Part shown: in pieces, positions 33,229 to 64,000 of the stretch | Position numbering within the stretch: position 1 is the stretch's first letter | How the letters are laid out: each line of letters begins with the position of its first letter | From: a bacterium | GTDB lineage: Bacteria; Patescibacteriota; Minisyncoccia; Phycocordibacterales; Phycocordibacteraceae | Length of the DNA: 64,000 nucleotides | Assembly: GCA_021811365.1 (NCBI GenBank) | Contig: JAJZPB010000002.1 | Location: 8,162-72,161 of the forward strand | Direction: 5' to 3' | Position numbers and translations under genes: made by a program | The notes under the pieces: model-generated | What the model was told of the DNA's origin: nothing | The model's database searches: none | Seen by the model: the letters and a program-made list of their open reading frames with translations, nothing else

Positions 33229-33291
33229 GGATATATTTTACACGTAACATGCGCTGGCCGGATAGTCGCTCGCTGTGGATGCGACGCGCAT

Positions 33292-35772: not shown

Positions 35773-35784
35773 ATGCCTATTGTA

Positions 35785-38712: not shown

Positions 38713-38784
38713 GTAGATAAAGGGCCAAGCTAGAAAAGAATACTTAGCGCAGTACTTGCATATTGGACCATTTTTCATAATATT

Positions 38785-46230: not shown

Positions 46231-47563
46231 TCACTTTTACGCGCTTCTGCCCCGTGTGCTTTTCCCAGCGATTGAGAATCACCTCTGCGTATACGGGACT
46301 CTTCTCCATGATGCAGCAGCGTCGCCCGAGCGCGACCGACGCCATGAGGGTTGAGCCCGAACCGCCGAACGGCTCGAGCACGAGCTGCCCGCGGCGCGTG
46401 AGCACCTTGATGTACGGGATGAGCAGTGGCAGCGGCTTCACACCGAAGATGATGCCCTGGCCCGAAGACTTCTCGTCAGCGGCATTGTAGTCAAGGAAAT
46501 CGGTCGGGCAGTACTTCTTGTCCTTGCCGTACGGCTCCCAGTGCGGCTTTCCCGCGATACCGAAGAGCGCGGTGCGGTATTCCTCCTCGAACAAACCCTC
46601 CTCGTCGCCCAAGTTAAGGCCGCCGAATTCCTCGGTCGTTCCAACCATGGCGATGTCGTGTTTGCTGAAAAACTTATGCTGTCCGGCATACCCCTGGTTG
46701 CGGTTCGGGAGGTGCCAGACGAGCATGTTGCGCACCTTCCAGTGCTTCTCCATTTCGCCCCACACCTCGCGCAGGTTCTTCCAGTTTTCGTAGCAGATGA
46801 TGGCAAAGTCGGGAGCCGCCACCTTCGCCACGTTATCCATCCAGAGAGTCGTGAAGTCGGGCGGAATTGACTCGGTTTCAAGATATCGACGGTTCTTTTT
46901 CGCGCCAAAGCCTACCGTAGGTTCACCTGCACGCGTCTTGCCGTGGAGATAATCTAAACGGTATGGTGGGTCGGTCATCACCATATCGGCTTTTTCCGTG
47001 CCCATGAGCGCGAGCATGTCGGCTTCGATAGTGCTGTCGCCAATATAGAGACGGGAGCCGTCGAGATCGTACAAGTCGCCCTTCTGGCTCGTTATGGCGC
47101 TGATGCCAGCCTTGCCGAGCGCTTTCTCGAGGTCGAAATGTTCTTCTGCGCTCTCTTCTTCAAAAATCGCATCGAGCTCTTCTGAGCTGAACCCCACCTC
47201 CGTGAGGAACGATTCGTCGAATTCAGCGAGCAGCTCATAGTCCCATTCCCCTACGGCCTTGTTTAGCCTTAGGCATAGGTCTCTTTCCCTTTCGATATCG
47301 GGAATGTCGACGTACACAATGGGGACGAATTCGTACTTAAGCTGCTTGAGCGCCTCGTACCGAAGATTGCCCCCAATAATAATGCCTTCGCGCCCGGGAG
47401 CGTGGTTCACAACGAGCGGGTCGACGACGCCGTGCTTCGCGATGCTGTCGGTTACGGCTTTTTTGGTCGACTCGTCAATTACTCTCGGATTATAGGGGGC
47501 ATGCCTAAGCGAGTCGGTTGGAACGTACTCGATGCGGAGCTCGGTTTGGGTGGTGTTGGCCAT
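46220..47563 (-). CDS. ParB-like nuclease domain fused to DNA methyltransferase (N6-A/N4-C, DPPY type)
   Basis: The N-terminus has ParB N-domain motifs (NPRVIDESTKKAVTDSIAKHGVVDPLVV). The core has DPPY and a C-terminal EPFGGSGSTL SAM-binding motif. This architecture is common on phages and plasmids. Confidence 0.85.
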   Translation of the reverse strand: MANTTQTELRIEYVPTDSLRHAPYNPRVIDESTKKAVTDSIAKHGVVDPLVVNHAPGREGIIIGGNLRYEALKQLKYEFVPIVYVDIPDIERERDLCLRLNKAVGEWDYELLAEFDESFLTEVGFSSEELDAIFEEESAEEHFDLEKALGKAGISAITSQKGDLYDLDGSRLYIGDSTIEADMLALMGTEKADMVMTDPPYRLDYLHGKTRAGEPTVGFGAKKNRRYLETESIPPDFTTLWMDNVAKVAAPDFAIICYENWKNLREVWGEMEKHWKVRNMLVWHLPNRNQGYAGQHKFFSKHDIAMVGTTEEFGGLNLGDEEGLFEEEYRTALFGIAGKPHWEPYGKDKKYCPTDFLDYNAADEKSSGQGIIFGVKPLPLLIPYIKVLTRRGQLVLEPFGGSGSTLMASVALGRRCCIMEKSPVYAEVILNRWEKHTGQKRVKVNGV

Positions 47564-47767
47564 TACGGTTGGGTCTTTAAAGGGGCGCGTTGTAAAAGGA
47601 AGCCCCTCTATCCACACTACGGCCGGTTTTGCGAAATTTGAGAAATTTGACAGGCGTCTAGTTTTAATTTACTGTGCGAACAGCTTCTCGCATGCCAACG
47701 TTCCCAAATAGGGCTGAAACAAGCCGCCTTTGGGAGGCGTATAGGCAAATAGAGTATCCCGTTCCTT

Positions 47768-47950
47768 TTGGAGGCACCCATGCTCGCACGCACCGTCGAC
47801 CACCCCTACATGCTCGCCATGTTCAAGGACCTCGAACTCACCGAAACCGAGATCCGAAACCTCACGACCCAGCGGACTCCGGAACAGGACAGGGCGCATA
47901 CCCCAAACCCCGTTCCCGCACTAGCCCTTCCCGGTCCGGCGGCAAGCTGA
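47768..47950 (+). CDS. Possible small conserved protein (paralogue at 52443-52631)
   Basis: MFKDLELTETEIRNLTT versus MFADLELTQTEIRAYTT are conserved at the amino-acid level between the two duplicated segments, while the nucleotides have diverged. Confidence 0.35.
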   Translation: MEAPMLARTVDHPYMLAMFKDLELTETEIRNLTTQRTPEQDRAHTPNPVPALALPGPAAS

Positions 47951-48018
47951 CCAAGCCAGCAGCCTCTGACTCATCTCACGCCACCCCAGACGCTCGACGT
48001 CCTTGGGGTGGTTTTTCT

Positions 48019-48405
48019 TTAGCGCACCCAGCGCAGCATCGGCGCTTTGGCGCCTTTCGGGAAGTCTTTTTGAAGACGCGGCGCAAATAGAGCGAGGTCG
48101 GTCCTGGAGGACTTCCTCAACTTGGCTATCTCCGCGTCGGTCTCGACGGGCAGGTAGGTGCTGTACTGCGGGTCATCTCCGTCCACCCAGTCTATTTCCT
48201 CGTAGAACTCAAAGAAGTAGCGCTGATCGCACTCCCGGCATCGGAGAAGGTACCGCCAGAAGTGGCTATCCTTGTAGTATGTTTCGAGCAATTCGAACGG
48301 TCCTGAGATCGGTGCGTTCACGAGCTCCGGATACTTCCAGAGCGCGCATTGCGTGGGAGCCTTTAATCGGTTATACGCCGCACTCTCTTTTCTTCTGTTG
48401 GGCAT
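48019..48405 (-). CDS. Hypothetical protein (paralogue of 52702-53103)
   Basis: 128 aa reading ...LWKYPELVNAPISGPFELLETY...RCRECDQRYFFEFYEEIDWVDGDDPQYSTYLPVETDAEIAKL. The second copy is conserved. Confidence 0.5.
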   Translation of the reverse strand: MPNRRKESAAYNRLKAPTQCALWKYPELVNAPISGPFELLETYYKDSHFWRYLLRCRECDQRYFFEFYEEIDWVDGDDPQYSTYLPVETDAEIAKLRKSSRTDLALFAPRLQKDFPKGAKAPMLRWVR

Positions 48406-48420
48406 AGTGGTGATGTGCGT

Positions 48421-48745
48421 TATCGGCTAATCTCCTCGCCGATTCCGCAGACGACTACTATGCAAAAGCGGCTCGGAGTTTTGATCCAGCCCATTGGCTG
48501 AATGAAATCTCCCAACCGCTTTGCGATCAGTCGCGCGCGCCATCTGGCTCCCCGCAGATTTCCCAGTTCGCCTACCCTCATCAGGAGGCGCGCGCGGTCC
48601 GCATTCGGTGCGCGGACTGCACTATTTCCTCTCAAGGAACAACTTAATTGTACCAGAAATGAAGGTAGTAACGGAGTGTCGCATTTGTTGCATTTCCAAA
48701 GACAGACCTTAGACCCGAAGGGTTCCGAATCCACCATTAGAGGAA
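48421..48745. repeat. Non-coding repeat R, copy 1 (copies 2 and 3 at 53105-53445 and 63866-64000)
   Basis: The shared core reads ...gcgatcagtcgcgcgcgccatctggctccccgcagatttcccagttcgcctaccct... An indel between copies 1 and 2 breaks any frame, so the repeat is non-coding. Confidence 0.65.
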
Positions 48746-48781
48746 CCAGGAATAGCCTTATGTTGCCTCAGCGACAAAGTT

Positions 48782-48860
48782 TGAATCCCGAGTGGCCCGC
48801 CCGAAGACTTTTGTATCGGACAGACCCGAGAGTCTTGTTTTGAGCCATTTTACGGTACGC
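48782..48860 (+). repeat. att-like repeat copy d (truncated)
   Basis: tttgaatcccgagtggcccgcccgaagacttttgtatcggacagacccgagagtcttgttttgagcc. It includes a degenerate T-loop/acceptor tRNA 3' fragment. Confidence 0.65.
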
Positions 48861-51860: not shown

Positions 51861-51960
51861 TTGACCTCGTCCCACAAGGCCCGCCACACACTTTTTTATA
51901 GGTGTCAACCCGAAGGCCCAAATCCCCTACCCTCGGACTTTTTTTGTGTAGACCCAAAGG
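51861..51960 (+). repeat. att-like repeat copy g (paralogue of copy c, two degenerate cores)
   Basis: cgccacacacttttttataggtgtcaacccgaaggcccaaatcccctaccctcggactttttttgtgtagacccaaagg. Confidence 0.6.
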
Positions 51961-52028: not shown

Positions 52029-52247
52029 TCAGCAAACAACTCCGCCGCCAATAATGATGCCTTCGCGCCCGGGAGCGTGGTTCACAACGAGCGGGTCGAC
52101 GACGCCGTGTTTCGTACTGCTCTCTACAATCGCCCTTTTGGTTGAGTCATCGACGACTCGCGGATTGTACGGCGCGTGCGTGAGTGAGTCAGTCGGAACG
52201 TATTCGATACGGAGTTTTGTTTGTGCGGTGGTGGCCATGGTGAGCGT
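52029..52247 (-). pseudogene. Truncated N-terminal fragment of a ParB-like/methyltransferase gene (paralogue of 46220-47563)
   Basis: MATTAQTKLRIEYVPTDSLTHAPYNPRVVDDSTKRAIVESSTKHGVVDPLVVNHAPGREGIIIGG, then an immediate stop. The nucleotide sequence matches about 47380-47565. Confidence 0.7.
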
Positions 52248-52442
52248 AAATAGCAAGGTGTGATAATGGAATGTCCTCTCTTTATGGGAGTGGTGAATTT
52301 GCAAAATTAGAACCATTTGACACCGTCCGTGTTGTAATTTACAATACATACAGCTTCTCGCACGACACGCTTCCCAAAGGGGCTGAAACAAGCCATATTC
52401 TGGCAGCGTATACATAAACGGAGACCAAAACGTTCCTTTTCC

Positions 52443-52631
52443 ATGGAGGCAGCATTGCCCAACACAGCGCCCAATGTCGACCCGTTCATCGCTGAGATGT
52501 TCGCGGACCTCGAACTCACCCAAACAGAGATCCGGGCCTACACAACTCACCCGTCCCGGGAGGGGCAGAACCAAGCGCGGAAGCCTAGCCGTGACTATGA
52601 GACTCCTCCCCGTTCGGAGGCGGCATGCTGA
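52443..52631 (+). CDS. Possible small conserved protein (paralogue of 47768-47950)
   Basis: See 47768-47950. Confidence 0.35.
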   Translation: MEAALPNTAPNVDPFIAEMFADLELTQTEIRAYTTHPSREGQNQARKPSRDYETPPRSEAAC

Positions 52632-52701
52632 CGAAATCAGCTTGTTCTTCCATCACCTGTGCCACCCCAAAGCGCTTAACGGCGTTGGGGGTGGCTTTTC
52701 T

Positions 52702-53103
52702 TTATTGCACCCAGCGCAGCGTCGGCTCCTTGGCGCCCTTTGGGAAGTCCTTCTGGAGGCGTGGCGTGAATTGAAGGAGTTCAACCTGCGTGGCGTTTTG
52801 CAACTTTGCTATTTCCGCGTCGGTCTCGACGGGCAGGTAGGTGCTGTACTGCGGGTCCTCGCCGTCGACCCAGTCGATCTCTTCGTAGAACTCAAAGAAG
52901 TAGCGCTGCCCGCACTCGCGACATCGGAGAAGGTACCGCCAGAGGTGGCTATCCTTGCTATATGTTTCGAGCAATTCGAACGGTCCTGAGATCGGTGCGT
53001 TCACGAGCTCCGGATACTTCCAGAGCACACACTGGGTGGGGGTGCGCAGTTGATTATATGCTGAGCACGTTTTCTTTTTGTTAGTCATAGCGATGATGTA
53101 CAA
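52702..53103 (-). CDS. Hypothetical protein (paralogue of 48019-48405)
   Basis: 133 aa with the same LWKYPELVNAPISGPFELLETY...RCRECGQRYFFEFYEEIDWVDGEDPQYSTYLPVETDAEIAKL core. Confidence 0.5.
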   Translation of the reverse strand: MYIIAMTNKKKTCSAYNQLRTPTQCVLWKYPELVNAPISGPFELLETYSKDSHLWRYLLRCRECGQRYFFEFYEEIDWVDGEDPQYSTYLPVETDAEIAKLQNATQVELLQFTPRLQKDFPKGAKEPTLRWVQ

Positions 53104-53104
53104 T

Positions 53105-53445
53105 ATCGGCTAATCTCCTCGCCGGTTCCGCAGACGACTTCAATGCAAAAAGCGGCTCGGAGTTTTGATCCAGCCCATTGGCTGAATGAAATCTCCCAAC
53201 CGCTTTGCGATCAGTCGTGCGTACCATCTGGCTCCCCGCAGATTTCCCAGTTCACCTACCCTTTCGGGAGGTACGCACGGTCCGCAGTAAGTGCGCGAAC
53301 TGCACGATTTCCTTTCAAGGAACATCGTAAGTATACCAGAAAGGTGGTCGTAAACAGAGTATTGGATGTGTTGCATTCTCCACAAGCGGCGCCGGAGAGT
53401 AAACCCGAAGGGCTTTGCGTCGCTACCGAAGAAAGTCAAGAATAG
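53105..53445. repeat. Non-coding repeat R, copy 2
   Basis: Aligns with 48421-48745 for most of its length (copy 1 diverges in the last ~100 nt) and with 63866-64000 over the shared core. Confidence 0.65.
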
Positions 53446-53464
53446 TCCTGTACTGCCCTGACGA

Positions 53465-53520
53465 TATAGTTTGAATCCCGAGTTTGCCGTCCGAAGACTT
53501 TCCTATCTTTGTAACCTGAG
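53465..53520 (+). repeat. att-like repeat copy h
   Basis: tagtttgaatcccgagtttgccgtccgaagactttcctatctttgtaacctgag. Confidence 0.55.
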
Positions 53521-53811
53521 ATCTAGAATCTACATGCAATGAGTCACGTCAGTGAAATAAACCTGTCGTCTTTCCGCTCAAATACCGCAAAGCATTCCTG
53601 ACGCCACACAGCAGCAGAGCAATTCTGAAAAACGTCAAAGAAGTCGAAGAGCGATACGATATGGGGATATTGGAAAACAATCGAACGGTACGTCGCGAAC
53701 CAGGAAAGTTGGCGGACCCAGCTTAGCTCACGCTCTGGCATTGAGCCCAAGCATAGCGTCATACCCCGTCGCTTCGGCGGGGTTGTTGATTCGGAAATAG
53801 CGATGAATAGC

Positions 53812-54489
53812 TCAGCGCTCTTCGAATCGATCGATTCTCCCATCACTAAGCCATATACTCCGATCTATGAACGGCCGCGCCTCATCGGGTTCATGAGTTA
53901 CGAGCAGGATGGTTTGACCCGTTTCGTTTCTGAGTTTAGCGAAAAGCTCTAAGACGACTTTTGCCGACAGATGGTCAAGATTCGCCGTTGGTTCATCGGC
54001 AAACAACACCTTTGGGTTATTAATGAGAGCACGCGCCACCGCAACCCGTTGCTGTTCACCGCCCGATAGTTCACTCGGGTAGTGATCAAGCCGCTCGCCA
54101 AGACCGACAGTGGTGAGAAGTTGCTTGGCATGCTGTTTATATGCAGCAGATTCAACACCTAATGCCATAGCCGGAAGGTACACATTCTGTAGTGCGGTAA
54201 ATTCAGCAATGAGGGCATACTCTTGGAAAACATACCCGAGGCGTTTAAGACGGAATTGAGACCTTTCAGCATCCGTTAGATTCAGTACGTCGATACCATC
54301 TATGGAGATCGAACCTCCTGAGGGTACATCGAGCAACCCAAGCTGATGCAGAAGTGTTGATTTCCCCGAACCACTCCTCCCTGAAATAATAATGAACTCT
54401 CCCTCAGTAACGGAAAAGGAAATATCTTTGAGCGCGGGGTTCGGTACCTTTCCAGGATACGTCTTACTGAGATGCGATACCGTAATCAT
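53812..54489 (-). CDS. ABC transporter ATP-binding protein (MacB/LolD/FtsE-like)
   Basis: Walker A GRSGSGKST, Q-loop, signature LSGGEQQR, Walker B ILFADEPT, H-loop. Confidence 0.9.
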   Translation of the reverse strand: MITVSHLSKTYPGKVPNPALKDISFSVTEGEFIIISGRSGSGKSTLLHQLGLLDVPSGGSISIDGIDVLNLTDAERSQFRLKRLGYVFQEYALIAEFTALQNVYLPAMALGVESAAYKQHAKQLLTTVGLGERLDHYPSELSGGEQQRVAVARALINNPKVLFADEPTANLDHLSAKVVLELFAKLRNETGQTILLVTHEPDEARPFIDRSIWLSDGRIDRFEER

Positions 54490-54501
54490 GGTGTGTTGAG
54501 G

Positions 54502-55746
54502 TTAGCGGTCAATTGCCGTAAGAATGTTTTCCCGTGCTACCAGTTTACTTGGGAAATAGCCCGCCAACATGCTCGCAGCAACCAGCATTAAAGTACTAAT
54601 CGCGATTGTCACGGGCACATATACTGGGTACAACACGCCGATAGGAAGAACGATTGGATGCGCATCCATGAACGGGGTTACGACCCCGAAGGCAAGTCCT
54701 GCACCGATGATACTGCCTACCGTCATGTAGAAGAGCGACTGAAACACGTAGGATAGTACGATGATGGACTGCCGAAGGCCTATTGCTTTCAAAATACCGA
54801 TTTGTCGTCGCCTATTCACTGCGTTGATATAAATGAGCACAAATATAATGACCGCAGCAATCAGAATACTTATAGCGCTTACGATGTAGGAGATTAAATT
54901 AAACGCAGCAATAACCGGCGCCACCACGGCTAGCAGCTGCTTATAGGTCTGCACTTTTAGGTTCGGAAATAGCGCTCGGATCTTCGCGGCATACTGATCA
55001 ACTGACGCATACTGTAGATTCGTCTTAACGAGAATCTGCGAAGCCTCGTCATGCACCCCCAATTCCGACTCAGCCTCTCGTGACGTGATGATCGCGGAAT
55101 CACCAAGATTGCCGAGCAAGATGCTGTAAATGCCTTTTACGGTATACGTGCGAATGTCGCCATTACTGTAGGTAACACGCACCTTATCTCCTACCTTTAC
55201 TCCTCCGAGGTCTGCTGGTTGCGGGTATTTCCCGCCTCCGGCAACCCCCACGCCTAAGAGTATCTGGTCCGTATCCGAGGGGGAAAGGAATTGTCCAGCA
55301 ATAAGGTCTTTTTTGAAAGACAATACTGTATTTACATCACTTGGGTCGACGCCATACACTTCGCCCGAAGTGGTGACGTACTGTCCATCATGGTACTTAT
55401 CGAACGCAACTGACGAAGCTAGCAAGTACTCTCGCGTAGTTGCTTCGACACCTGGAATGGTCTGGATCTCTGCCCGTAACCGCGCTTGATCAGGAATGTA
55501 TGTCCGCACAGTCGGATACTGCTGCGGATTTATGACGACATCGGACGTACTGTTATCGACCAAGTTGGCATACACCGCTTGTGGGAATCCAGCAAGAATG
55601 CCCGCAGTAAAAGTCACGTTTAGAAACGAAAGTGCAAGAATACAGATCATAAGAAGCATCGAGGCTTTACTCCCTTGCACGATCGACTTTGTCGCTATAA
55701 AAAGTGCGGTGCGAACTGTTCTCATGCGTTTACTTTGGGACTGCAA
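54502..55746 (-). CDS. ABC transporter permease, FtsX-like/MacB-type (four TM helices plus large periplasmic domain)
   Basis: N-terminal TM, large extracytoplasmic domain, then three C-terminal TM helices. Sits directly upstream of the ATPase gene. Confidence 0.85.
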   Translation of the reverse strand: MQSQSKRMRTVRTALFIATKSIVQGSKASMLLMICILALSFLNVTFTAGILAGFPQAVYANLVDNSTSDVVINPQQYPTVRTYIPDQARLRAEIQTIPGVEATTREYLLASSVAFDKYHDGQYVTTSGEVYGVDPSDVNTVLSFKKDLIAGQFLSPSDTDQILLGVGVAGGGKYPQPADLGGVKVGDKVRVTYSNGDIRTYTVKGIYSILLGNLGDSAIITSREAESELGVHDEASQILVKTNLQYASVDQYAAKIRALFPNLKVQTYKQLLAVVAPVIAAFNLISYIVSAISILIAAVIIFVLIYINAVNRRRQIGILKAIGLRQSIIVLSYVFQSLFYMTVGSIIGAGLAFGVVTPFMDAHPIVLPIGVLYPVYVPVTIAISTLMLVAASMLAGYFPSKLVARENILTAIDR

Positions 55747-57337
55747 GCGCTTCCCCTTGTGTCAGACCGGAGGTAATCTCAATCATGCCATCCTGTCCTA
55801 CGATGCCGGTAGTAACCACTTGGGGAATAAGTGCCCTGCCCTCAACACGCATCACGGTGGTCGTAGTTCCTGTTTGCGTGAGTGCGCTCGCCGGCACAAG
55901 AAGCGCATTTGTGCTTGATGCTGTGGTAATCCACACGTTTGCGGTCATACCGGAACGCAAATTTGGGTAACTTTTATCAAACAGAATCGTCGTTGTGTAG
56001 TAAACCGAACCATCAACTATGGTCTCTGCTGGGTCTATTTCGGTCACTTTCCCGTAAAAAGAATCTGTTGAAGGAAACGCATACAATCCGATACGCACCG
56101 AGTCACCGACCGCGACACCCACAATATCGTCTTCTGATACATTTGCTTTCACTTCAAGGGGGTCAAGAGGGATAAGCGAAATAATGGTACGGCCCGGTCC
56201 GACCACCTCTCCCACTGATCCGTGCGTGTCCGTAACAACGCCATTGAAGGGCGCCACTATCTCATCATTGCGAATTTGAGCTTCAATCGCCGACGCATTT
56301 GCCTGTGCTTCGCGCACCATCGCCTGAGTAGCGGCAATGTTGTTTGTTGTTGACGTTGCAGTAGTGAGTGCAAGCTGGGACTGCGTCTGATCGAGCGTTG
56401 CCTTTGCAAGCGCAATCGTGTTCATCAAGGCGCGAACCTCTGATATAGCTGCGTTGGTCTCACTGAGTCCCGTCGACGCGCCGAGACGATACGCTGCTGC
56501 CTGCGCACTTGAAAGATTGTTGCTGTCTGCCACAACGGTCACCGCATCATTCATAAATGAATGTACCGCATCCAAACGACTTAACGCCGACGAGAGCGCC
56601 GAGTCGAGCACGGCTGGTGTACTCGCGCTGTCTAACAAGGCCGTGCTGCGCGTCCAGGCTGCGAGAGCCTGCCCTGCCGACACCCGCTCACGCGGGAACG
56701 CCAGTGTAAGCGCCGCATTGCTTACCACAAACGTTAACTCCGGGTTAGCGGTGCTCGCGCTCGTAAAGAAATTAGCAAGCTGCGTTGTAACAGCGTCGTT
56801 TGCCTTTGAGTATGCATCTGCCAGCGTACTTGGCACCTCCGCATAGGCGTTTTGTAGCTGCTGCTTCGCAACGGAGACCTGCGCCTGAGACACCCCCACA
56901 CTCTGCGGCGTTGCTCCGCTAAGCAGCTGATTGAGATTCGCGGTCGCTGCGCTTACGCTTGCCTGCGCCTGGGCAAGTTCCGCCTCAAGCACACTTGCGC
57001 TCTGCTTTGCAAGTACTTGACCACTTACGACCGTCTCTCCCACATGCACATTCAGCGCCGCAAGTTTCCCGGGCGCTTCAAAAAATAAATTGCTCGTCGT
57101 AGGTGGCTGAAGGTTTCCAGTTGCTAGCACCTCTTGTGCGACTGCCCCGCGCTGCACGGTAATCTGCATATATGTAGGCCCTCTGGCATACCCATACGCA
57201 TACCACCCAGCACCTACTGCGATAGCGATAAGGATGAATACGGGAACAATTATCCTCACGATGATAACTATACACCCGGCCCACGAAGTAAATATCTTGT
57301 TCTCCCCTATCGAACATCGAGCATCCCCTGGGCCCAA
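55730..57337 (-). CDS. HlyD-family membrane fusion (periplasmic adaptor) protein with extended Ala/Gln-rich coiled coil
   Basis: N-terminal TM, a long coiled-coil hairpin, and C-terminal beta-barrel/lipoyl-like segments (...VTEIDPAETIVDGSVYYTTTILFD...). Overlaps the permease start. Confidence 0.8.
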   Translation of the reverse strand: MGPGDARCSIGENKIFTSWAGCIVIIVRIIVPVFILIAIAVGAGWYAYGYARGPTYMQITVQRGAVAQEVLATGNLQPPTTSNLFFEAPGKLAALNVHVGETVVSGQVLAKQSASVLEAELAQAQASVSAATANLNQLLSGATPQSVGVSQAQVSVAKQQLQNAYAEVPSTLADAYSKANDAVTTQLANFFTSASTANPELTFVVSNAALTLAFPRERVSAGQALAAWTRSTALLDSASTPAVLDSALSSALSRLDAVHSFMNDAVTVVADSNNLSSAQAAAYRLGASTGLSETNAAISEVRALMNTIALAKATLDQTQSQLALTTATSTTNNIAATQAMVREAQANASAIEAQIRNDEIVAPFNGVVTDTHGSVGEVVGPGRTIISLIPLDPLEVKANVSEDDIVGVAVGDSVRIGLYAFPSTDSFYGKVTEIDPAETIVDGSVYYTTTILFDKSYPNLRSGMTANVWITTASSTNALLVPASALTQTGTTTTVMRVEGRALIPQVVTTGIVGQDGMIEITSGLTQGEALAVPK

Positions 57338-58407
57338 ATGACTACCTCATCGGGCGGACGCCTTGATGTACGGAACCGCGGTCCGGGACCTGTGCCGATT
57401 CGGAATACGAACGGGAGCGTCGCAGAATCGGTAGCGAACGCGTCTGCGAGTGACCGGTTTGCTTCAAGAATTCGGGCGCGCTCCGCGGGCGTAAATAGGC
57501 GCGCTTTATCAGGAGCCTGCAGAGACGCACCTAGGTACAGGATACCCGTCATGGGTTGCAGATTGAGACCGTTAAGCTGAGCGGTAAGCCAAAACCGCTC
57601 AACTGCGCGCCCCGCCTCAAAATAATCATGGGGAGTCGACCCCAGCATAAGGAGCGCGCCAAATGCGCCGGAACTCATGTACACACGCCTATTGCGCGCG
57701 GCTATTCCTTTTTGCATGCCAAATACATTTAGCAGACGCTGCAGACTCCAGTACCGAAGAAGCCGGAACGCTAGCTCTACGTGAGGCGGCGCAGCGAGGG
57801 TAGGGTAATAGAATCCTTTTCGTCGTAAGCGATCTTGCTGCTTAGTCCAGTTTATGGTTGAGAAAAATCCTTGGTGCACCGCATAGTTCCCGAAAATGAG
57901 TTCGTCGTAGACGCTCACTGCCTTTGCGATTTTGCGCATCAGTGCGCGATCATCGCACAAGCGCAGCGTTACGGTCGGCGTTTGGTCGAGGGAACTGCGC
58001 AGTGCTGCCCGCTGCGCAGTTGTGAGCGACGTACGCTTAAAGGGATTTCGATTCGTCGCGCGCGTCAATAAGCATCTCAAGAGAGGGTCAATGCTTTCCT
58101 GCGAATGTTTCGTTAACCGAAGTACGGCAACGCACCGCTCACCCTTCTCACGCGGGAAAGGTTCGAGCCTCGTCTCGTACCCTCTCGCACGCGCGGCAAT
58201 GCAAGCGCTTTCGCAAGCTGCCCCAAGTGAGACGTAGTCCGATGCGCTCGTAAATACCGAATCCGTCGTTTGCGGGCCCGGTTCGTAATACAGCTCCAGC
58301 GTCGCAAGGTCCCGCACAACCCACTGCCAGGGCTGATTATTGTCGCCCGAGGGGGCCTGTAGCGCAGCTGTGAGTATGTATTGTATATCGTCGACAGAGC
58401 GTTCCAT
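57307..58407 (-). CDS. Tandem nitroreductase-fold protein (SagB/ThcOx-type dehydrogenase-like)
   Basis: The N-terminal domain has SGDNNQPWQWVV, typical of the FMN nitroreductase family. A second nitroreductase-like half (GILYLGASLQAP...) follows, giving 366 aa overall. Confidence 0.7.
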   Translation of the reverse strand: MERSVDDIQYILTAALQAPSGDNNQPWQWVVRDLATLELYYEPGPQTTDSVFTSASDYVSLGAACESACIAARARGYETRLEPFPREKGERCVAVLRLTKHSQESIDPLLRCLLTRATNRNPFKRTSLTTAQRAALRSSLDQTPTVTLRLCDDRALMRKIAKAVSVYDELIFGNYAVHQGFFSTINWTKQQDRLRRKGFYYPTLAAPPHVELAFRLLRYWSLQRLLNVFGMQKGIAARNRRVYMSSGAFGALLMLGSTPHDYFEAGRAVERFWLTAQLNGLNLQPMTGILYLGASLQAPDKARLFTPAERARILEANRSLADAFATDSATLPFVFRIGTGPGPRFRTSRRPPDEVVIWAQGMLDVR

Positions 58408-58453
58408 ATAGCTACTCTAGTGGTGTGTAGGGTACCACGTCCCGGAACACAAA

Positions 58454-59389
58454 GTGTACAGAAGGAGAATCGTGGCGCGTATTCGGTATACTATCGTCAT
58501 GGACCAAACTCCGCCCCCTCTAACAAACGAAGCGTCTTACTATGCCGAAGCATTTTCCAGAAATATAGGGCTCCTCACAGAGGAAGAACAGCAGCGGCTT
58601 AAAAACTCTACCGTAGCAATAGCAGGTTTAGGCGGTGTGGGAGGCATTTTTACGCTTGGCTTCGCTCGGCTCGGCGTCGGCGGATACCACCTCGCCGACC
58701 CTGACGAATTTGAACGCGCAAACACTAACCGTCAAGCAGGAGCAATGACCTCAACCGAGGGAAAAGCGAAGGCAGCCGTTATGAAGTCAATGGTGCTCGA
58801 CATAAATCCCTACGCCCGAGTAAAGACGTTCTCGGGCAAAGAAGAGAACTTTGATGAGTTCCTTGGAGAGGCCGATGTCGTTGTCGACGCAATAGATTTT
58901 TTTTCTATCGACGCGAGACGGCGGCTTTACCCTGCGGCACGTGCCCAGAAAAAATTCGTCGTGTCTGCAGGTCCAATTGGTTTCGGATCGGCAATGCAGG
59001 TTTTTGACCCGTTTGGGATGAGCTTTGACGAATACTTCGACCTTCATGACAGAATGACCCAAGAAGAGATGCTGATTCGATTCGGCGTCGGCATTACCCC
59101 CACCCTGCTACAACGACCGTACTTTCATCCAGACAAAGTGGGGCTCAAGAACCACACGGCTCCGTCCCTCGTTACGGGTACATTTCTTGCAGCTAACCTT
59201 GTAACTTGCGAGGTGGTTAAATTGCTGCTGAAGCGTGGGAAAGTGAAATGCATACCGCACTCAAGCCACATCGACCCGTATGTGCGCAAATACAAAAAAG
59301 TACACCTTCGTCGAGGGAACCGTTCGCTTATTCAACGCTTGAAGATACGATACGTCGAGCGCTTAGTAGCAAGAGAAGTATCGCTGTGA
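58454..59389 (+). CDS. ThiF/MoeB/HesA family E1-like adenylyltransferase
   Basis: Glycine-rich nucleotide loop VAIAGLGGVGG and the LADPDEFERANTNRQ motif. Divergent from the nitroreductase gene. Confidence 0.85.
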   Translation: MYRRRIVARIRYTIVMDQTPPPLTNEASYYAEAFSRNIGLLTEEEQQRLKNSTVAIAGLGGVGGIFTLGFARLGVGGYHLADPDEFERANTNRQAGAMTSTEGKAKAAVMKSMVLDINPYARVKTFSGKEENFDEFLGEADVVVDAIDFFSIDARRRLYPAARAQKKFVVSAGPIGFGSAMQVFDPFGMSFDEYFDLHDRMTQEEMLIRFGVGITPTLLQRPYFHPDKVGLKNHTAPSLVTGTFLAANLVTCEVVKLLLKRGKVKCIPHSSHIDPYVRKYKKVHLRRGNRSLIQRLKIRYVERLVAREVSL

Positions 59390-59632
59390 CATAAAAATGC
59401 TGCGCGCTACTGTCGCGGAACCATACTGTGCGTTTCGTTCTCTCCGGAAATCTCGAGTCTCTCCGGCGGCAACGAAATCGCCGTAGCGGATTACCGCAAA
59501 AACGCAAGACAGAATTACCCAGTTCTCCTTTGTGCAACATTTGACGCACGGCGTACGATGCTCGCCTTTTTCCCGCGAAGCAATCCTTCTGATCGGCACC
59601 CATTAAAATCGGTGTATACTCGACGCAATTCC

Positions 59633-60283
59633 ATGAGGTCGCTTTTGGTTTACCCTGAAACCGTTCTGCAACGCGCCAAAAGAAGCTGCCGATCACCCTT
59701 TGATGCATTTTGGCTTTTGAGCCAGCTTTCAACCTACCCTTTTATAGGGCTTCTCATGCTGCGATGGCGCGTCCAAATACACCGCCCCGACTCGTTTGAT
59801 GTCCCACAAGGAACACTTATCCTAGCAAACCACCAATCATACTACGACCCATTTCTTATTACCTACGGCCTTGGCCCTCACAACTGGCCTCGCGTCTTGC
59901 CCTGCCGGTATCCGGTCGCGCAAGACGTCATTCGCGACCGCGCCCTCGCGCTTCCTATTCGAGCACTTGGCGGTTACGACATTGGGGGATCTAAAATTGA
60001 ACGCGCCAAAAAATTACTCTATACACGAGAGTTGCTTGACCGGGGTTACACGATCATCATTTTCCCGGAAGGGGCGATTACGAAGACGGGCGAAATGATT
60101 AGCGACTTCAAGTTAGGGGCGCAGATGCTATTTTCTCGAGCCTACCCAGTCGTATTTACAAAGCTCCAGGGCTTTACGAAAACGGCGCGGCGAGAGCGCA
60201 CGTACTCGATTACATACAGCCCTGTGTTGCGAGGATCCTCTGAGGAATTGAGCCAACGAATGCGGGACTTCTATCGATCCTGA
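59633..60283 (+). CDS. Lysophospholipid acyltransferase family protein (PlsC / OlsA-like)
   Basis: NHQSYYDP (HxxxxD acyltransferase motif) and IFPEGAITK (FPEG motif). Start placed at MRSLLVYPETV. Confidence 0.8.
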   Translation: MRSLLVYPETVLQRAKRSCRSPFDAFWLLSQLSTYPFIGLLMLRWRVQIHRPDSFDVPQGTLILANHQSYYDPFLITYGLGPHNWPRVLPCRYPVAQDVIRDRALALPIRALGGYDIGGSKIERAKKLLYTRELLDRGYTIIIFPEGAITKTGEMISDFKLGAQMLFSRAYPVVFTKLQGFTKTARRERTYSITYSPVLRGSSEELSQRMRDFYRS

Positions 60284-60538
60284 CCGCTGATACACACAAA
60301 TCGACTGCCCATAGACACTTCTATTCACACCTGCCACTCAGCGCTTCAGAGCGCGTATGCCAAGGTTCCTCGTCCGCATATCCTATACGGATTCGGCAGT
60401 AACCACTGGCAATAAAAGACGTGGGGAACTGCTTGTGGTACCGTATAGCGCAGCACGAGAGGCTCACAATCGTTTCCCTGAGCAGGTAAAATGAATCCTC
60501 GTGGCACTGCGCAGGCTTTTCGATAATGCATCGGCGCA

Positions 60539-61399
60539 CTATTCTCGACCCGTGTTGACTGCCGCGTTTGCAGGATTTCTATTTTCATCTTCAAACTGAT
60601 AGCCGCGTGCTTGCATCTCACGCCACATGCGGTTATACCACAGTCGGTATCCCTCGCTGCTTGGGTGGGTGTAGTCATATGAAAAATACCGCTTTGGATC
60701 TTCTGAGAATGGGTTGTTCAAGTCTGTCTCGGGGAATAGCTCTATGTATGCCACGTTATGAAGGTTGCATACTTGTATGAACAAATCCCGCACCTTTAGC
60801 ATGCGTCGGACGAGTACAGAGCGAATAAAAGGCGGGAAGAGAGGTGAGAGACCGAAATTTGCGTAAAAAAGAACAACCACCTTGTGATCGCTTATTGCTG
60901 CAGTTTCTGAAATGAGTCTGGTCAGTGCCCGAGTAAGCACCGGTAGACTGGTGAAATGCCAGATATCATTCCCGCCCGTGAAGAGTAAGACGAGATTGAA
61001 ATGCTGCCCTTGAACCTTTGCTAACTGTTGTACTACCTCGCTTGTCGTTGCACCATTCACTCCCAAATTAATGATTTCCGTGTGTGGGAAATCGCGCCCA
61101 AGCCTTCCAGCTATGGAGTCTTCGGGCTGCGCAGCACCCCTGCCAAACGCGGTACTGTCCCCCAGTATCAGTATCCGTTTCCCATTAGGGCGCAGTGCGG
61201 AATACGATTTTCGGTGCTTGCGCCACGTTACGAAATGAACAAAATCAAACCACAGAAGGCGTCCCGCCATCCTGAGCGCCTGCAGCACCACGAAGGCGAT
61301 GCCGAGTAGTGCAAATATGGTTAAAGCATCAAGTAAAAGCTGAACAGGCGATGTCCCCCGAGTCGTAAAGTCATGCACTATCTGAGAAAAAAATATCAT
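60539..61399 (-). CDS. SGNH/GDSL hydrolase family protein, membrane anchored
   Basis: ILGDSTAFG (block I, Ser), GGNDIW (block III), DYTHPS (block V, Asp-x-x-His). Confidence 0.8.
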   Translation of the reverse strand: MIFFSQIVHDFTTRGTSPVQLLLDALTIFALLGIAFVVLQALRMAGRLLWFDFVHFVTWRKHRKSYSALRPNGKRILILGDSTAFGRGAAQPEDSIAGRLGRDFPHTEIINLGVNGATTSEVVQQLAKVQGQHFNLVLLFTGGNDIWHFTSLPVLTRALTRLISETAAISDHKVVVLFYANFGLSPLFPPFIRSVLVRRMLKVRDLFIQVCNLHNVAYIELFPETDLNNPFSEDPKRYFSYDYTHPSSEGYRLWYNRMWREMQARGYQFEDENRNPANAAVNTGRE

Positions 61400-62133
61400 G
61401 CTGAAAGTAAGCGTTCTACATGGGGACGAATTTGTACATACCAGAGTGCATAGCCCTCATCTGTGGGGTGAGTCTGATCTCCAGCAAAATGACCGCCCAA
61501 CGCAACAGGATCATCCTCACGATGGAGCGAGAGGCACGCCACGCTATTTTCCGCACAGGTGTGCATAAACCGCTCTTGCCACGCCATTCCGCGTCTCCTG
61601 TAAACGCGATTAAACGGAAAATGGAACAAAGGGGCGGCTGCAGGATTGTTCGGACCAACATAGAGCACCTTTAGACCAAGCCGTCTTGCCTCCTGAATAG
61701 CAGCGCGAAGAGCGCGGTCCATTCGCTCGAGAGACGTAGCGTGTACGATGTCCATACCGCCAACCGCAAGAACAACCAAATCATAGGGATGCTCGGGTGT
61801 CAGCGCTTTCGAAAGCGCTGACGCTAGCGTGCGAAGCTTAAGACCACGCCGCGACCAGTTTTCAATATGCGCGTCCGGATAGTCAAGCCCAATTCGTCCT
61901 GGTACCGTTCGAACCGAGTCGCTCGCGCCAGTGCCGTAACCCGTACTATCGCCCACATAGAGTATCCGTGGACTCCCGTCAGCGCTCATGCGTTCAAACG
62001 GCCGTATACGATGTGTCAATTGACGGGAGATACATAGGTACCATCCGATCCTGAGGCCAATAACAGCCGACACTAAACCGCAGGTCGCGACAACTGCTAA
62101 AAGTATGCGGAAACAGAGCGCCATATCGACCAT
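61396..62133 (-). CDS. SGNH/GDSL hydrolase family protein, membrane anchored (paralogue of the adjacent gene)
   Basis: YVGDSTGYG, GGMDIV, DQTHPT. Its stop overlaps the start of 60539-61399 by 4 nt. Confidence 0.8.
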   Translation of the reverse strand: MVDMALCFRILLAVVATCGLVSAVIGLRIGWYLCISRQLTHRIRPFERMSADGSPRILYVGDSTGYGTGASDSVRTVPGRIGLDYPDAHIENWSRRGLKLRTLASALSKALTPEHPYDLVVLAVGGMDIVHATSLERMDRALRAAIQEARRLGLKVLYVGPNNPAAAPLFHFPFNRVYRRRGMAWQERFMHTCAENSVACLSLHREDDPVALGGHFAGDQTHPTDEGYALWYVQIRPHVERLLSA

Positions 62134-62210
62134 TCAAGTATAGCTGATTAACCAAACCAGAAAGGATTCACACGTCCAGACATTGGGATTATACTCTAGA
62201 ATGTCAAGAT

Positions 62211-62933
62211 ATGCTGATACGGATTGTGCGAACACAGCACTCAACAAAGACGAATATTTTGTCCCGCGCCGCGGAAAGCGCCCTGGCACACCGTGCCGCA
62301 AGCCAAGTGATTAGCGCGCTTTGGAACGGCGAACCAGCACTCTCTTTTGAGGTTATTAAAGATGCGCTCGGCAAACCTCGCGTGAATATAGACTGTGACG
62401 GGACACAAAGCGCGTGTCCGATCTCATGGGCGCACGCCTACCCATACGCACTCGCGGCAGGCATACGCAACGAGTCCATGGACATTGGCGCCGATATCGA
62501 GCGCGTGCGTAGATTCCGTCGAGAGGTAATCACCGCATTTCTCACAGACCGCGAATGCGCACATGTACTCGAAAGAGAAGAAGCGACCCGCGCTTACCAC
62601 ACAACCCTTACCTGGTCGATTAAAGAGGCGATACTGAAAAGTATCGGTCTTGGACTACGCCTGAACCCTCGACGCATTGATGTAACTGAGGCACTCACGC
62701 TCCCGAATTACCACATCGGCTTCGCATACGTCGACAATATACGCGTCCCGTTGCAAATATGGAAACACCGTACTGCTGACTCGCACTTCGTGGCAGCAGC
62801 CGTTGCAATTCACCGCAACTACACCTACACTTTACGGAATGGCTTCTTCCTCGAGCGTTCCCTCGGAAGCGCGCCGGGTTGTGCTCTCGGTTATCGCCCA
62901 GACGGTCGGCCTCCCTTCGGAGAGCATCTCTGA
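62211..62933 (+). CDS. 4'-phosphopantetheinyl transferase (Sfp-type)
   Basis: GKPRV, GADIERV (Mg-binding), WSIKEAILKSIG (W/KEA motif). Confidence 0.75.
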   Translation: MLIRIVRTQHSTKTNILSRAAESALAHRAASQVISALWNGEPALSFEVIKDALGKPRVNIDCDGTQSACPISWAHAYPYALAAGIRNESMDIGADIERVRRFRREVITAFLTDRECAHVLEREEATRAYHTTLTWSIKEAILKSIGLGLRLNPRRIDVTEALTLPNYHIGFAYVDNIRVPLQIWKHRTADSHFVAAAVAIHRNYTYTLRNGFFLERSLGSAPGCALGYRPDGRPPFGEHL

Positions 62934-63138
62934 TGAGGCGCATCTGGCTGACATAGCGCCTGACTCGATTGCGCTGTTTGAGTTGCTCGTGTGTTTCGAA
63001 AACGTGCTCGGTACAACAGTACGGTACGAAGACATTGCGGCTATTGAGACTGTCGGTGACGTCATTGCATACGCGGAACACTTGCCGCAAGAAGTTATCA
63101 ATGCCGCCCTCGAACGCACCGCCTCTACCGCCATATGA
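62839..63138 (+). CDS. Acyl carrier protein
   Basis: LADIAPDSIALFELL contains the phosphopantetheine Ser in a DSI/L context, and the size is ACP-like. The start is uncertain: the frame overlaps the PPTase 3' end, and a GTG/TTG start further in is possible. Confidence 0.6.
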   Translation: MASSSSVPSEARRVVLSVIAQTVGLPSESISDEAHLADIAPDSIALFELLVCFENVLGTTVRYEDIAAIETVGDVIAYAEHLPQEVINAALERTASTAI

Positions 63139-63857
63139 CCACGGACGTACGCTTTACCATTCTCTCAATGCCTGCAGACATAGCACAAGCACGCTCTATG
63201 GTGAGCCGCGTATATGCCGAATCCGGCTATCATCCTGACCAAGAGGAGCACGCTATTCCGCGCACCCTTGACCGCGCAGACACTATTACCTTGGGAGCAT
63301 TCCACGGCGATACGCTTGTTGGAACGATTTCTCTCGTGATCGACGGCCCACAGGGTCTTCCTATGGACTGCATTTATAGTGAGGAACTTACGCCCTTGCG
63401 CGCATCACAGTTACGTATAGCCGAGGTGGGACAGTTTGCTATTGACTCTGAAACCTACCGCGCGAGCACCGGCAGAGCAGTGCCCCGATTCCTTGCGCTT
63501 GCATTCTTTGGCGCTGCACTGTCCGGAGCAATCGCGCATGAGTGCGCGTACATATGCGTTGCGGTGAATCCGAAGCATGCTCGATTTTATCGATTGCTCG
63601 GGTTCCGTAAAATTGGTGAGGAAAAACGCTACGGAGCAGTAAGTGCCCCCGCAATCGCACTGGTCTTCCGCACGGAAGACTGGCAGCGCCAAAGCACGTT
63701 GCTAGGACTACTTGGGCGAGAAGTGGAGAAGCACCTGCTTCCGCAGGAGTTCTTTTTCTCCGCAACTACGCGCCCCTCTCAGACACTCAGTACCGCACGT
63801 GTTGAACTGGCTACAACGCAGGATACTGCAGCCAGGCTTCCTCAAACCGCGCCGTAA
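63135..63857 (+). CDS. GNAT-fold N-acyltransferase resembling acyl-ACP-dependent N-acyl amino acid synthases (OlsB/FeeM-like)
   Basis: RIAEVGQFAI resembles the E-x-[SG]-R/Q-[FL]-A-V core of OlsB/LuxI-like acyl-ACP N-acyltransferases. The start codon overlaps the ACP stop. Family call is by motif recollection only. Confidence 0.55.
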   Translation: MTTDVRFTILSMPADIAQARSMVSRVYAESGYHPDQEEHAIPRTLDRADTITLGAFHGDTLVGTISLVIDGPQGLPMDCIYSEELTPLRASQLRIAEVGQFAIDSETYRASTGRAVPRFLALAFFGAALSGAIAHECAYICVAVNPKHARFYRLLGFRKIGEEKRYGAVSAPAIALVFRTEDWQRQSTLLGLLGREVEKHLLPQEFFFSATTRPSQTLSTARVELATTQDTAARLPQTAP

Positions 63858-63865
63858 CTAGGACA

Positions 63866-64000
63866 AAGTCTTCGCGATTAGTCGCGCGTGCCATCTGGCT
63901 CCCCACAGATTTCCCAGTTCGCCTACCCTTTCGGGAGGTACGCACGGTCCGCAGTAGGTGCGCGAACTGCACGATTTCATTTCAATGAACATCGTAATCA
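63866..64000. repeat. Non-coding repeat R, copy 3 (truncated by window end)
   Basis: tcgcgcgtgccatctggctccccacagatttcccagttcgcctaccctttcgggaggtacgcacggtccgcagtaggtgcgcgaactgcacgatttc matches the core of copies 1 and 2. Confidence 0.65.

Follow-up and report, generated by a model that had tools for sequence, protein, structure and literature searches.

The pair OxzA and OxzB of Pseudoalteromonas rubra makes tyrazolones and phenazolones from acyl-CoA and Tyr or Phe. Within OxzB the ThiF domain carries out an ATP-dependent cyclisation and the nitroreductase domain an oxidation (10.1101/2020.06.11.147165). TyzA, TyzB and TyzC of Mycobacterium tuberculosis (Rv2336, Rv2337c and Rv2338c, listed as TyzACB) make C12-tyrazolone (PMC10404671), and TrzA and TrzS (Rv1356c and Rv1355c) make tryptazolones, with cyclisation preceding an O2-dependent desaturation (PMC12856293). 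The same trio of N-acyltransferase, ThiF and nitroreductase leads to a group of open-chain N-acyl-dehydrotyrosines, namely the stieleriacines, kyonggic acids and thalassotalic acids (PMC12479983). N-acyl-tyrosine and oxazolone lipids have been documented so far from Pseudomonadota, Actinomycetota and Planctomycetota (PMC12479983), and the physiological role of such lipids is an open question (PMC12856293). Here we describe a related eleven-gene block from a bacterium assigned to Patescibacteriota (Minisyncoccia; Phycocordibacterales; Phycocordibacteraceae). The block occupies positions 53812-63857 of a 64,000-nt stretch of DNA, hereafter the window (GenBank assembly GCA_021811365.1, contig JAJZPB010000002.1, positions 8,162 to 72,161, forward strand).

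We propose that the block is probably a self-contained biosynthesis and export cluster for a lipidated amino-acid derivative, using a carrier-protein-dependent acyl-oxazolone or N-acyl-dehydro-amino-acid pathway. The core chemistry is already known; new is a version in Patescibacteria that is fed by a carrier protein, linked to an exporter and equipped with PlsC-like and SGNH genes. No paper joining Patescibacteria with N-acyl amino acids, oxazolones or systems of acyl carrier protein (ACP) and 4'-phosphopantetheinyl transferase (PPTase) was found in the literature searched, which does not prove that none exists.

Proteins of the window were searched against Pfam and NCBIfam profiles and judged by the cut-offs of the models. 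All eleven genes named in the preliminary description were found at their places in the open reading frame (ORF) listing, each passed the test for its family, and the catalytic motifs are unbroken in every enzyme of the block. The genes are as follows.

53812-54489, minus strand: ATP-binding cassette (ABC) ATPase of the LolD/MacB/DevA type (PF00005, 115.7 bits; Walker A and LSGG)
54502-55746, minus strand: FtsX/MacB-type permease, a separate polypeptide with four transmembrane helices (PF02687, E 3.2e-16)
55730-57337 at most, minus strand: membrane-fusion adaptor of the HlyD/MacA/YknX type (TIGR01730, 140.4 bits against a cut-off of 94.9)
57307-58407, minus strand: tandem-lobed nitroreductase-fold protein of 366 aa, TyzC / OxzB C-domain / Acg type (NF005901, the Rv1355c family; Acg family)
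58454-59389, plus strand: ThiF-family putative adenylating cyclase, TyzB / OxzB N-domain type (PF00899; PRK08223)
59558-60283, plus strand: PlsC-family (HX4D) acyltransferase (PF01553, E 3.6e-15; H92x4D, FPEG169)
60539-61399, minus strand: SGNH/GDSL hydrolase 1 (PF13472, E 8.2e-23; GDS80, GGND142, DYTH242)
61396-62133, minus strand: SGNH/GDSL hydrolase 2, a paralogue of the first (PF13472, E 1.5e-14; GDS61, GGMD125, DQTH219)
62211-62933, plus strand: Sfp-type PPTase (PF01648, E 2.4e-14)
about 62839-63138, plus strand: ACP (PF00550, 34.4 bits against a cut-off of 20.8)
63135-63857, plus strand: FeeM-type long-chain N-acyl amino acid synthase (NAS) (PF21926, E 5.1e-36)

The nitroreductase, adaptor, permease and ATPase genes are packed closely on the minus strand, with the nitroreductase first, and apparently form one operon. 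Divergent from the nitroreductase gene, across a gap of 46-91 nt, ThiF and then the PlsC-like gene are read on the plus strand. The rightmost plus-strand run, past the minus-strand SGNH pair, is PPTase-ACP-synthase. The best promoter-like site in the block (62167-62195) lies directly upstream of the PPTase gene; the promoter scan of the block gave no enrichment against shuffled sequences. A strong GC-rich hairpin at 53763-53783 (9 bp, 7 of them GC), located 29 nt past the stop codon of the ABC ATPase gene, may be the operon terminator; a T-run is missing there on the minus (coding) strand.

Core enzymes and their carrier protein

The ThiF and nitroreductase genes were at first regarded as unrelated neighbours of the acyltransferases. 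They are instead established partners of NAS enzymes in acyl-oxazolone biosynthesis, and in the window a FeeM-type synthase is linked to ThiF at a distance of 3.7 kb. The three window proteins match successive parts of a single NCBIfam model, PRK14852 (989 positions): the synthase at positions 33-196 (E 1e-13), ThiF at 308-587 (E 2e-61) and the nitroreductase at 614-798 (E 9e-19). This indicates that a fusion of all three exists in nature. PRK14851 and the Rv1355c family model describe ThiF-nitroreductase fusions, and the window ThiF and nitroreductase match half each. The published oxzAB layout is present in Pseudoalteromonas ardens (locus L038), where an N-acyltransferase of 294 aa precedes a ThiF-nitroreductase fusion of 672 aa. 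With the N-terminal half of this fusion the window ThiF shares 44% identity over its whole length (E 2e-70), and the C-terminal half can be aligned from one end to the other with the window nitroreductase (E 5e-13).

ThiF scored 334.5 bits against PRK08223 (cut-off 266), and its likely start is ATG 58499. The GLGGVG and DAID motifs are present and CxxC is absent; the Asp of the DAID-type motif is the residue mutated in TrzS D217A (PMC12856293). The closest solved structures are those of E. coli ThiF and of TcdA, an enzyme of oxazolone ring closure on tRNA; the score with the TcdA model is far under its cut-off. Assignment to the ThiF/MoeB enzymes of thiamine or molybdopterin synthesis was rejected on the scores with those models (59-76 bits against cut-offs of 152-376), on the missing CxxC and on the lack of a ThiS/MoaD partner. 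No ThiS/MoaD-family gene was found among the annotated genes of ten related loci with gene calls (two others, L004 and L008, are unannotated). An E1-like enzyme plus dehydrogenase of the thiazole/oxazole-modified microcin or ribosomally synthesised and post-translationally modified peptide (TOMM/RiPP) type was also rejected. There is no YcaO-family gene among the eleven genes of the block, and no precursor peptide gene was recognised.

The protein encoded divergently from ThiF had been described as a 366-aa double nitroreductase-fold protein, and the family matches bear this out. Over its full length it matches positions 376-720, the C-terminal half, of NF005901 (the Rv1355c, or TrzS, family; E 5.5e-49), and it matches the Acg family with E 1.2e-39; the best match in the PDB is Acg 2YMV. 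We predict from this sequence relationship that it is a flavin-dependent oxidase of the nitroreductase superfamily.

PF21926 is the only Pfam family matched by the synthase (124 bits against a cut-off of 27), and PF13444, the OlsB type, gave no match at E<=0.01. FeeM (PDB 2G0B) is matched over residues 9-191 with E 2.2e-37, by which an ordinary acetyltransferase is ruled out. Of the earlier wording for this GNAT-fold protein, "resembling OlsB/FeeM", the FeeM half stands and the OlsB half falls. The last ~14 codons of the synthase extend into the right-hand repeat fragment described below.

The ACP ORF is open from 62803; its likely start is ATG 62839 (99 aa) rather than 62803, and the source annotation starts it at 62881. 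Depending on the start, the gene overlaps the PPTase tail by 53 to 95 nt. The C-terminal tail of the PPTase within this overlap (62839-62933) is conserved only in part, in L090. The ACP is not a fragment of the PPTase frame: it is read in a different frame, has a Pfam match of its own and is a separate gene in the related loci that were aligned or annotated. The serine of its DSI motif and a YEDxxxIETVGD block are kept in nine aligned orthologues. The PPTase has Sfp (1QR0) as its best PDB match and carries GADIE and WSIKEAILK motifs. Both the ACP and the Sfp-type PPTase of the preliminary description are thus real (PF00550, PF01648), and they are dedicated, accompanying ThiF in all 13 of the Patescibacteria-type loci compared below. 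That the synthase works with this ACP is indicated at the genomic level only, by the 4-nt overlap of the synthase start with the ACP stop and by the presence of ACP in the same 13 loci. FeeM is dependent on an acyl carrier protein (PMC10404671). Together, the FeeM type of the synthase, the translationally coupled ACP gene and the private PPTase point to acyl-ACP as the likely acyl donor.

Related loci and acyl-handling genes

A word-indexed homologue search with the synthase as query returned only two relatives, and ThiF was used as the handle instead. In the first set, 80 loci from species-representative genomes were fetched with a ThiF profile and all of their ORFs were searched with the eleven window proteins. 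Within 10 kb of ThiF, a nitroreductase gene was present in 52/80 loci and a FeeM-like synthase gene in 31/80, the latter mostly in Planctomycetota and Proteobacteria. ACP, PPTase and PlsC-like genes were detected in two loci only, L008 (a Saccharibacteria metagenome-assembled genome, MAG) and L004 (an unclassified MAG). They were absent from the other 78, which are of proteobacterial, planctomycete and other origin. The second set consisted of the contigs of ten closer ThiF homologues (50-65% identity); their source names include two Moranbacteria/Moraniibacteriota and one Patescibacteria group (L097). The window, L004, L008 and these ten make up 13 Patescibacteria-type loci, all sampled through ThiF, in which the following genes lie beside it.

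synthase, ACP and PPTase: 13/13 loci
PlsC-like gene: 11/13 loci (missing in L090 and L091)
ABC/FtsX exporter: 10/13 loci
nitroreductase: 8/13 loci
SGNH pair: 8/13 loci
alpha/beta hydrolase in place of the SGNH pair: 3/13 loci

The identical eleven-gene set, in the two-arm layout of the window, occurs in L097. Gene order is reshuffled between the 13 loci, and their genomic neighbours differ from locus to locus: a ribosomal operon, ATP synthase, dnaA/dnaN, hydrogenase maturation genes or ClpP. Occasional tailoring genes in the relatives encode UbiE-type methyltransferases, a flavin adenine dinucleotide (FAD) monooxygenase and a dihydroorotate (DHO)-dehydrogenase-like flavoenzyme, as would be expected of a diversifying natural-product cluster. 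L091, L095 and L096 form a sub-variant that has one alpha/beta hydrolase for the SGNH pair plus a UbiE-type methyltransferase, which recalls the methylated stieleriacines. Further neighbours are an aromatic-hydroxylase-type FAD monooxygenase, VTT/DedA-like membrane proteins in two loci, an Lnb_N-domain protein and a weak PEP-CTERM-motif protein (L084 1594-2733, 6031-6624 and 7774-8532; L094 13704-14321; L089 2617-3513).

ThiF relatives at 44-47% identity (P0078, P0103, P0117 and P0121) are annotated from Omnitrophota and one Nanoarchaeota MAG. The distribution suggests that ThiF has spread widely by horizontal transfer among ultrasmall or uncultivated lineages. In the viral collection, relatives of ThiF were found on one "viral" contig only, of 527 kb, and a phage origin is therefore unsupported.

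The premise of a small symbiotic genome agrees with the position of the host. The seryl-tRNA synthetase (SerRS) of the window is 81-83% identical to proteins named Kaiserbacteria, Paceibacterota, Parcubacteria and Minisyncoccia, which places the host in Patescibacteria (candidate phyla radiation), a group reported to lack lipid synthesis (PMC11665869). Since the ACP, PPTase, PlsC-like and serine hydrolase genes are seen only in lineages reported to be without lipid synthesis, we favour a role in acyl supply or acyl transfer for them.

The start of the PlsC-like gene is uncertain (59558, 59633, 59645 or 59756). Its product scored 38.7 bits against the PlsC subfamily TIGR00530 (cut-off 102.95) and matched PlsC 5KYM of the PDB with E 0.04. 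No OlsA-specific NCBIfam model was matched, and an Aas-type NCBIfam model was matched with E 1e-8. When 1.84 billion representatives were searched exhaustively with HMMER, just 336 relatives came up at E<=1e-3 and 46 at E<=1e-10, and all 46 have cluster-linked copies in the examined loci as their best match. Such a small number of relatives, with all 46 of the nearer ones closest to a cluster-linked copy, indicates a small dedicated subfamily and not the housekeeping plsC. The latter was rejected on the TIGR00530 score and the rarity of the subfamily, and on this point the preliminary description holds. The usual position of the gene is directly after ThiF or directly before PPTase-ACP, which fits the use of acyl-ACP or of a ThiF-activated intermediate. 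The PlsC-like protein is a true pathway member; our favoured guess is that it forms an ester from the same acyl-ACP or from a ThiF-activated intermediate.

The dedicated PlsC-like gene bears on the first interpretation of the block as an OlsB/OlsA aminolipid set. The synthase would then N-acylate an amino acid from (3-hydroxy)acyl-ACP and the PlsC-like enzyme would esterify a second chain. The resulting membrane aminolipid would have two tails, and ThiF and the nitroreductase would be unrelated to it. An N-acyltransferase plus a PF01553 O-acyltransferase defines the ornithine, glutamine and glycine lipids (PMC11631085). The PlsC-family partner of that scheme was confirmed (PF01553, HX4D), it is present in 11 of the 13 loci, and in L089 it lies directly 3' of the synthase. 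However, the OlsB-family partner was not found, the synthase matching PF21926 and not PF13444, and the link to ThiF had been missed. An OlsB/OlsA-type route leaves unexplained why ThiF is linked in every locus and why the PRK14852 family is a three-part fusion. Two loci (L090 and L091) do without a PlsC-like gene, and elsewhere it mostly adjoins ThiF or PPTase-ACP rather than the synthase. If the genome lacks fatty-acid synthesis, as reported for the group (PMC11665869), there is moreover no evident source of 3-hydroxyacyl-ACP. We regard an aminolipid of this kind as improbable; the PlsC-like protein itself may still carry out an OlsA-like O-acylation.

The adjacency of PlsC-like and ThiF genes can be read in another way, in which ThiF makes no end product but an activated intermediate. 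From it the PlsC-like HX4D enzyme would acylate a hydroxyl group, for instance on a lysolipid, on glycerol phosphate or on a wall polymer. The product would be an ester-linked lipo-amino-acid conjugate, with the nitroreductase as optional tailoring. ThiF is present in 13/13 loci against 8/13 for the nitroreductase, and the ThiF and PlsC-like genes are adjacent and co-directional in the window, L004, L084 and L097, with a 4-nt overlap in L084. Oxazolones (azlactones) are reactive acyl donors, "versatile synthetic intermediates" according to de Rond et al., and the role of ThiF in producers of open-chain compounds only has been termed enigmatic (PMC12479983). The characterised homologues, however, release free oxazolones, and L090 and L091 have ThiF without a PlsC-like gene. 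No PlsC-family enzyme is known to take an oxazolone or an acyl-adenylate as donor. We consider this reading as a whole unlikely.

The two SGNH hydrolases are paralogous and membrane-anchored, as first described. Each belongs to PF13472, has one N-terminal hydrophobic helix (residues 21-39 of SGNH1 and 7-25 of SGNH2) and retains GDS and DxxH blocks; the two genes overlap by 4 nt. Counts of the charges on either side of the helices favour neither membrane orientation of the SGNH domains. With the PlsC-like protein, the ACP and the PPTase they could instead serve lipid salvage, recycling host (lyso)phospholipids for the membrane of the symbiont, with the N-acyl amino acid as a side activity. Patescibacteria are reported to have neither lipid synthesis nor an identified mechanism of lipid uptake or breakdown, and lysolipids of neighbours are the suspected source (PMC11665869). 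The SGNH and PlsC families include lysophospholipases and lysophospholipid acyltransferases, in line with the Aas-type match, and the ACP, PPTase and PlsC-like genes are confined to the Patescibacteria-type loci. Nevertheless, in the 13 loci, which were sampled through ThiF, the salvage genes never occur without synthase and ThiF. With 46 members at E<=1e-10, the PlsC-like subfamily is smaller than one would expect if it served an essential membrane function in so large a phylum, and the cluster is found in variable, island-like contexts. Salvage as the main function is in our judgement quite improbable.

Export, predicted pathway and genomic setting

The presence of a MacAB-like efflux system was confirmed. 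The ATPase, FtsX-fold permease and adaptor genes are contiguous on the minus strand, 3' of the nitroreductase. The ABC ATPase matched LolD with E 2.6e-66 and MacB with E 1.7e-54, both under the equivalog cut-offs. The permease has four hydrophobic helices, and its orthologues in relatives carry MacB_PCD. The adaptor matched MacA with E 3e-23 and has one N-terminal transmembrane helix; source annotations start it later, giving 479 or 509 aa. It had been credited with an unusually long coiled coil. The extra length is real, about 130 residues over the 371-position NCBIfam MacA model NF008606. The coiled coil is weakly supported: helices span about residues 76-327 in a single-sequence AlphaFold model of low confidence (predicted local distance difference test, pLDDT, 44), used for the extent of secondary structure only.

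On the proposed pathway, the Sfp-type PPTase would first turn the private ACP into its holo form, as its family and the strict co-occurrence of the two genes suggest. A fatty acyl chain would then be placed on the ACP. Candidates for the loading are the membrane-anchored SGNH pair, which might work as transacylases with scavenged (lyso)phospholipids as source, and an acyl-ACP synthetase encoded elsewhere. The FeeM-type synthase would use acyl-ACP to acylate the amino group of an amino acid, probably an aromatic one (Tyr, Phe or Trp). This step is predicted because FeeM, which the synthase matches strongly and at full length (E 2e-37), depends on an ACP, and because the ACP gene of the block is translationally coupled to the synthase gene. 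The ThiF-like enzyme would adenylate the free carboxylate with ATP and close a 2-alkyl-oxazol-5(4H)-one ring, which the nitroreductase-fold flavin oxidase would desaturate between C-alpha and C-beta. Both reactions are assigned by homology, having been shown biochemically for OxzB, TyzB/TyzC and TrzS. The product would finally be exported by the MacB-type ABC system, whose genes are presumably co-transcribed downstream of the oxidase. Its role is suggested by this operon structure and by co-occurrence in 10/13 loci.

Several points weigh against this pathway, which is known here from its genes alone. The characterised oxidases require O2, and anoxic habitats are common among Patescibacteria. 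Five of the 13 loci have no nitroreductase within 10 kb, so a desaturated oxazolone cannot be the universal end product. No ACP-loading enzyme is evident within the cluster, and the amino-acid specificity is guessed from the similarity to FeeM. Characterised oxazolone pathways take acyl-CoA, not acyl-ACP (10.1101/2020.06.11.147165, PMC10404671, PMC12856293). The products of the trio in Stieleria, Massilia and Thalassotalea are N-acyl-dehydrotyrosines with an open chain, and an oxazolone was not seen there (PMC12479983).

A bolder extension of the proposal is conceivable, although we hold it doubtful: that Patescibacteria carry a horizontally shuffled, self-contained acyl-chain economy, running from hydrolases through the private ACP and an acyl-oxazolone to a PlsC-like ester lipid and MacB-type export. 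The SGNH (or alpha/beta) hydrolases might strip host-derived (lyso)phospholipids, and the PlsC-like enzyme might use acyl-ACP or the oxazolone as donor. Through the pump with the extra-long adaptor the product might reach the host or the cell surface and serve there as a signal, an antimicrobial or an episymbiont envelope lipid.

If the proposed pathway is true, Patescibacteria would be added as a source phylum of N-acyl-tyrosine/oxazolone lipids, and theirs would be the first oxazolone-type system fed by a carrier protein instead of acyl-CoA. The block offers a concrete, clonable 10-kb target of 11 genes. The conserved ACP, PPTase, PlsC-like and paired lipase-family hydrolase genes give a rare genomic handle on acyl-chain handling in reduced symbionts, and the linkage to an exporter suggests that the molecule is aimed at the host or at competitors.

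The genomic setting of the block was analysed for repeats and signs of mobility. Repeat R, of about 1.45 kb, is present at 47369-48817 and 52044-53507 (75% identity). Of the third copy of R that had been assumed on the right-hand side, only the ~135-nt core exists, and the source contig has no more of it past the end of the window. What brackets the block is thus a short element in direct orientation, not R in full. The flanking features are the following.

53199-53335: left copy of the ~135-nt element, part of repeat R copy 2
53437-53507, plus strand: degenerate tRNA-Trp 3'-end / att-like repeat ("att copy h"), 75% identical to 48747-48817
63866-63997: right copy of the ~135-nt element, direct orientation, 93% identical to 53203-53330

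The ~135-nt element occurs three times in direct orientation, at 48515-48650, 53199-53335 and 63866-63997. The only long ORFs that span it contain a 1-nt indel ~60 nt upstream of the core, which argues against conserved coding. The Rfam search gave three tRNAs only and nothing for the element, its folding z-scores are weak and inconsistent (-0.6 to -2.9), and an exact-pattern scan of the viral and JGI metagenome collections found no copy. Its possible functions are those of a recombination site, a small RNA or a regulatory region. A Logan contig (L003, SRR13189623; 10,692 nt) corresponds to window positions 53260-63951. Its two termini fall within the ~135-nt copies and share an identical overlap of 25 nt, which would result equally well from an assembly break at the repeat or from a circular or excised form.

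The 3' end of a tRNA-Trp gene (26446-26518) and ~50 nt downstream of it are repeated along the window (26446-26566, 27752-27822, 48779-48849 and 53437-53507). Att-like copies better than copy h lie at 26517, 27773 and 48800, with 0-1 mismatch over 30 nt at 27773 and 48800. This arrangement suggests a tandem array of elements integrated at tRNA-Trp. A separate 59-nt direct repeat of 95% identity is found at 29488-29546 and 51886-51944, 22 kb apart.

From tRNA-Trp to about 53.5 kb the DNA is island-like and contains a type III restriction-modification pair, a large serine recombinase, a P-type ATPase, a ParB-methylase and an IrrE/M78 protease. In a defence/mobility stretch at 30321-40107, the IrrE/M78 peptidase adjoins a "Beta protein" (PF14350, E 5e-63), and a type III-like DNA methylase (826 aa) and a ResIII helicase/nuclease (997 aa) are encoded. 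Core genes lie upstream (topoisomerase I, RelA/SpoT and SerRS), and downstream of the block the source contig, a 125-kb metagenome contig in ENA, is back to ClpB and IF-2. The G+C content of the block is slightly under that of the core region (0.49-0.55 against 0.54-0.59).

The block had been called mobile cargo. For this speak the island-like left flank, the direct ~135-nt repeats, the slightly lower G+C, the termini of contig L003 and the differing contexts in every relative; against it, assembly breaks account for those termini just as well, no recombinase lies within the block (53.8-63.9 kb), the nearest being the serine recombinase at 38785-40107, and no empty site was retrieved from a relative. 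Mobility of the block is plausible.

Comparison with known systems

The exporter resembles the type VII ABC exporters MacAB, YknXYZ and DevBCA in having an ATPase, an FtsX-fold permease and a membrane-fusion adaptor. It differs from them in that the ATPase and permease are separate and in its adaptor of ~480-535 aa with a long helical insert. No gene for an outer-membrane partner is present in the block.

From the aminolipid systems OlsB/OlsA and GlsB/GlsA (PMC11631085) the window differs in a synthase outside the OlsB Pfam family and in synthase and PlsC-like genes that are not adjacent. Ols systems have no counterpart of the obligatory ThiF partner.

Among the oxazolone systems, OxzAB shares with the window an N-acyltransferase, a ThiF domain and a nitroreductase domain. 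OxzB is one fused protein, whereas the window has two divergent genes. OxzA is of the PF13444/autoinducer-synthase type and acts on acyl-CoA, in contrast to the FeeM type with its own ACP and PPTase. The PlsC-like gene, the SGNH pair and the linked exporter of the window are all missing from OxzAB. In TyzACB, as in the window, ThiF (TyzB) and a single-chain flavin oxidase of ~370 aa (TyzC) are encoded by separate genes, with a divergent acyltransferase alongside. As for TrzS, Acg 2YMV is the closest structure reported (PMC12856293), as was found for the window nitroreductase. TyzA and TrzA differ from the window synthase in using acyl-CoA (C12 and C5, respectively) and in lying outside the FeeM Pfam family by their authors' description. 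Export in TyzACB and TrzAS is at most hinted at by a neighbouring mmpL9, and their hosts are Actinomycetota with full lipid metabolism.

The closest sequence relative of the window synthase is FeeM, an N-acyl-tyrosine synthase from a soil environmental DNA clone (PDB 2G0B). The carrier protein of FeeM is named FeeL, and in both systems the synthase gene abuts the carrier-protein gene.

The NasY-ThiF-nitroreductase clusters (PMC12479983) follow the same three-gene logic in three other phyla, without a private ACP and PPTase, a PlsC-like gene or an SGNH pair. Among our loci, those of Pirellulaceae (L016, L013 and L009) carry multiple FeeM-like synthases beside ThiF and the nitroreductase, and the methyltransferase tailoring of NasY-type clusters recurs in the Patescibacteria-type loci L091, L095 and L096.

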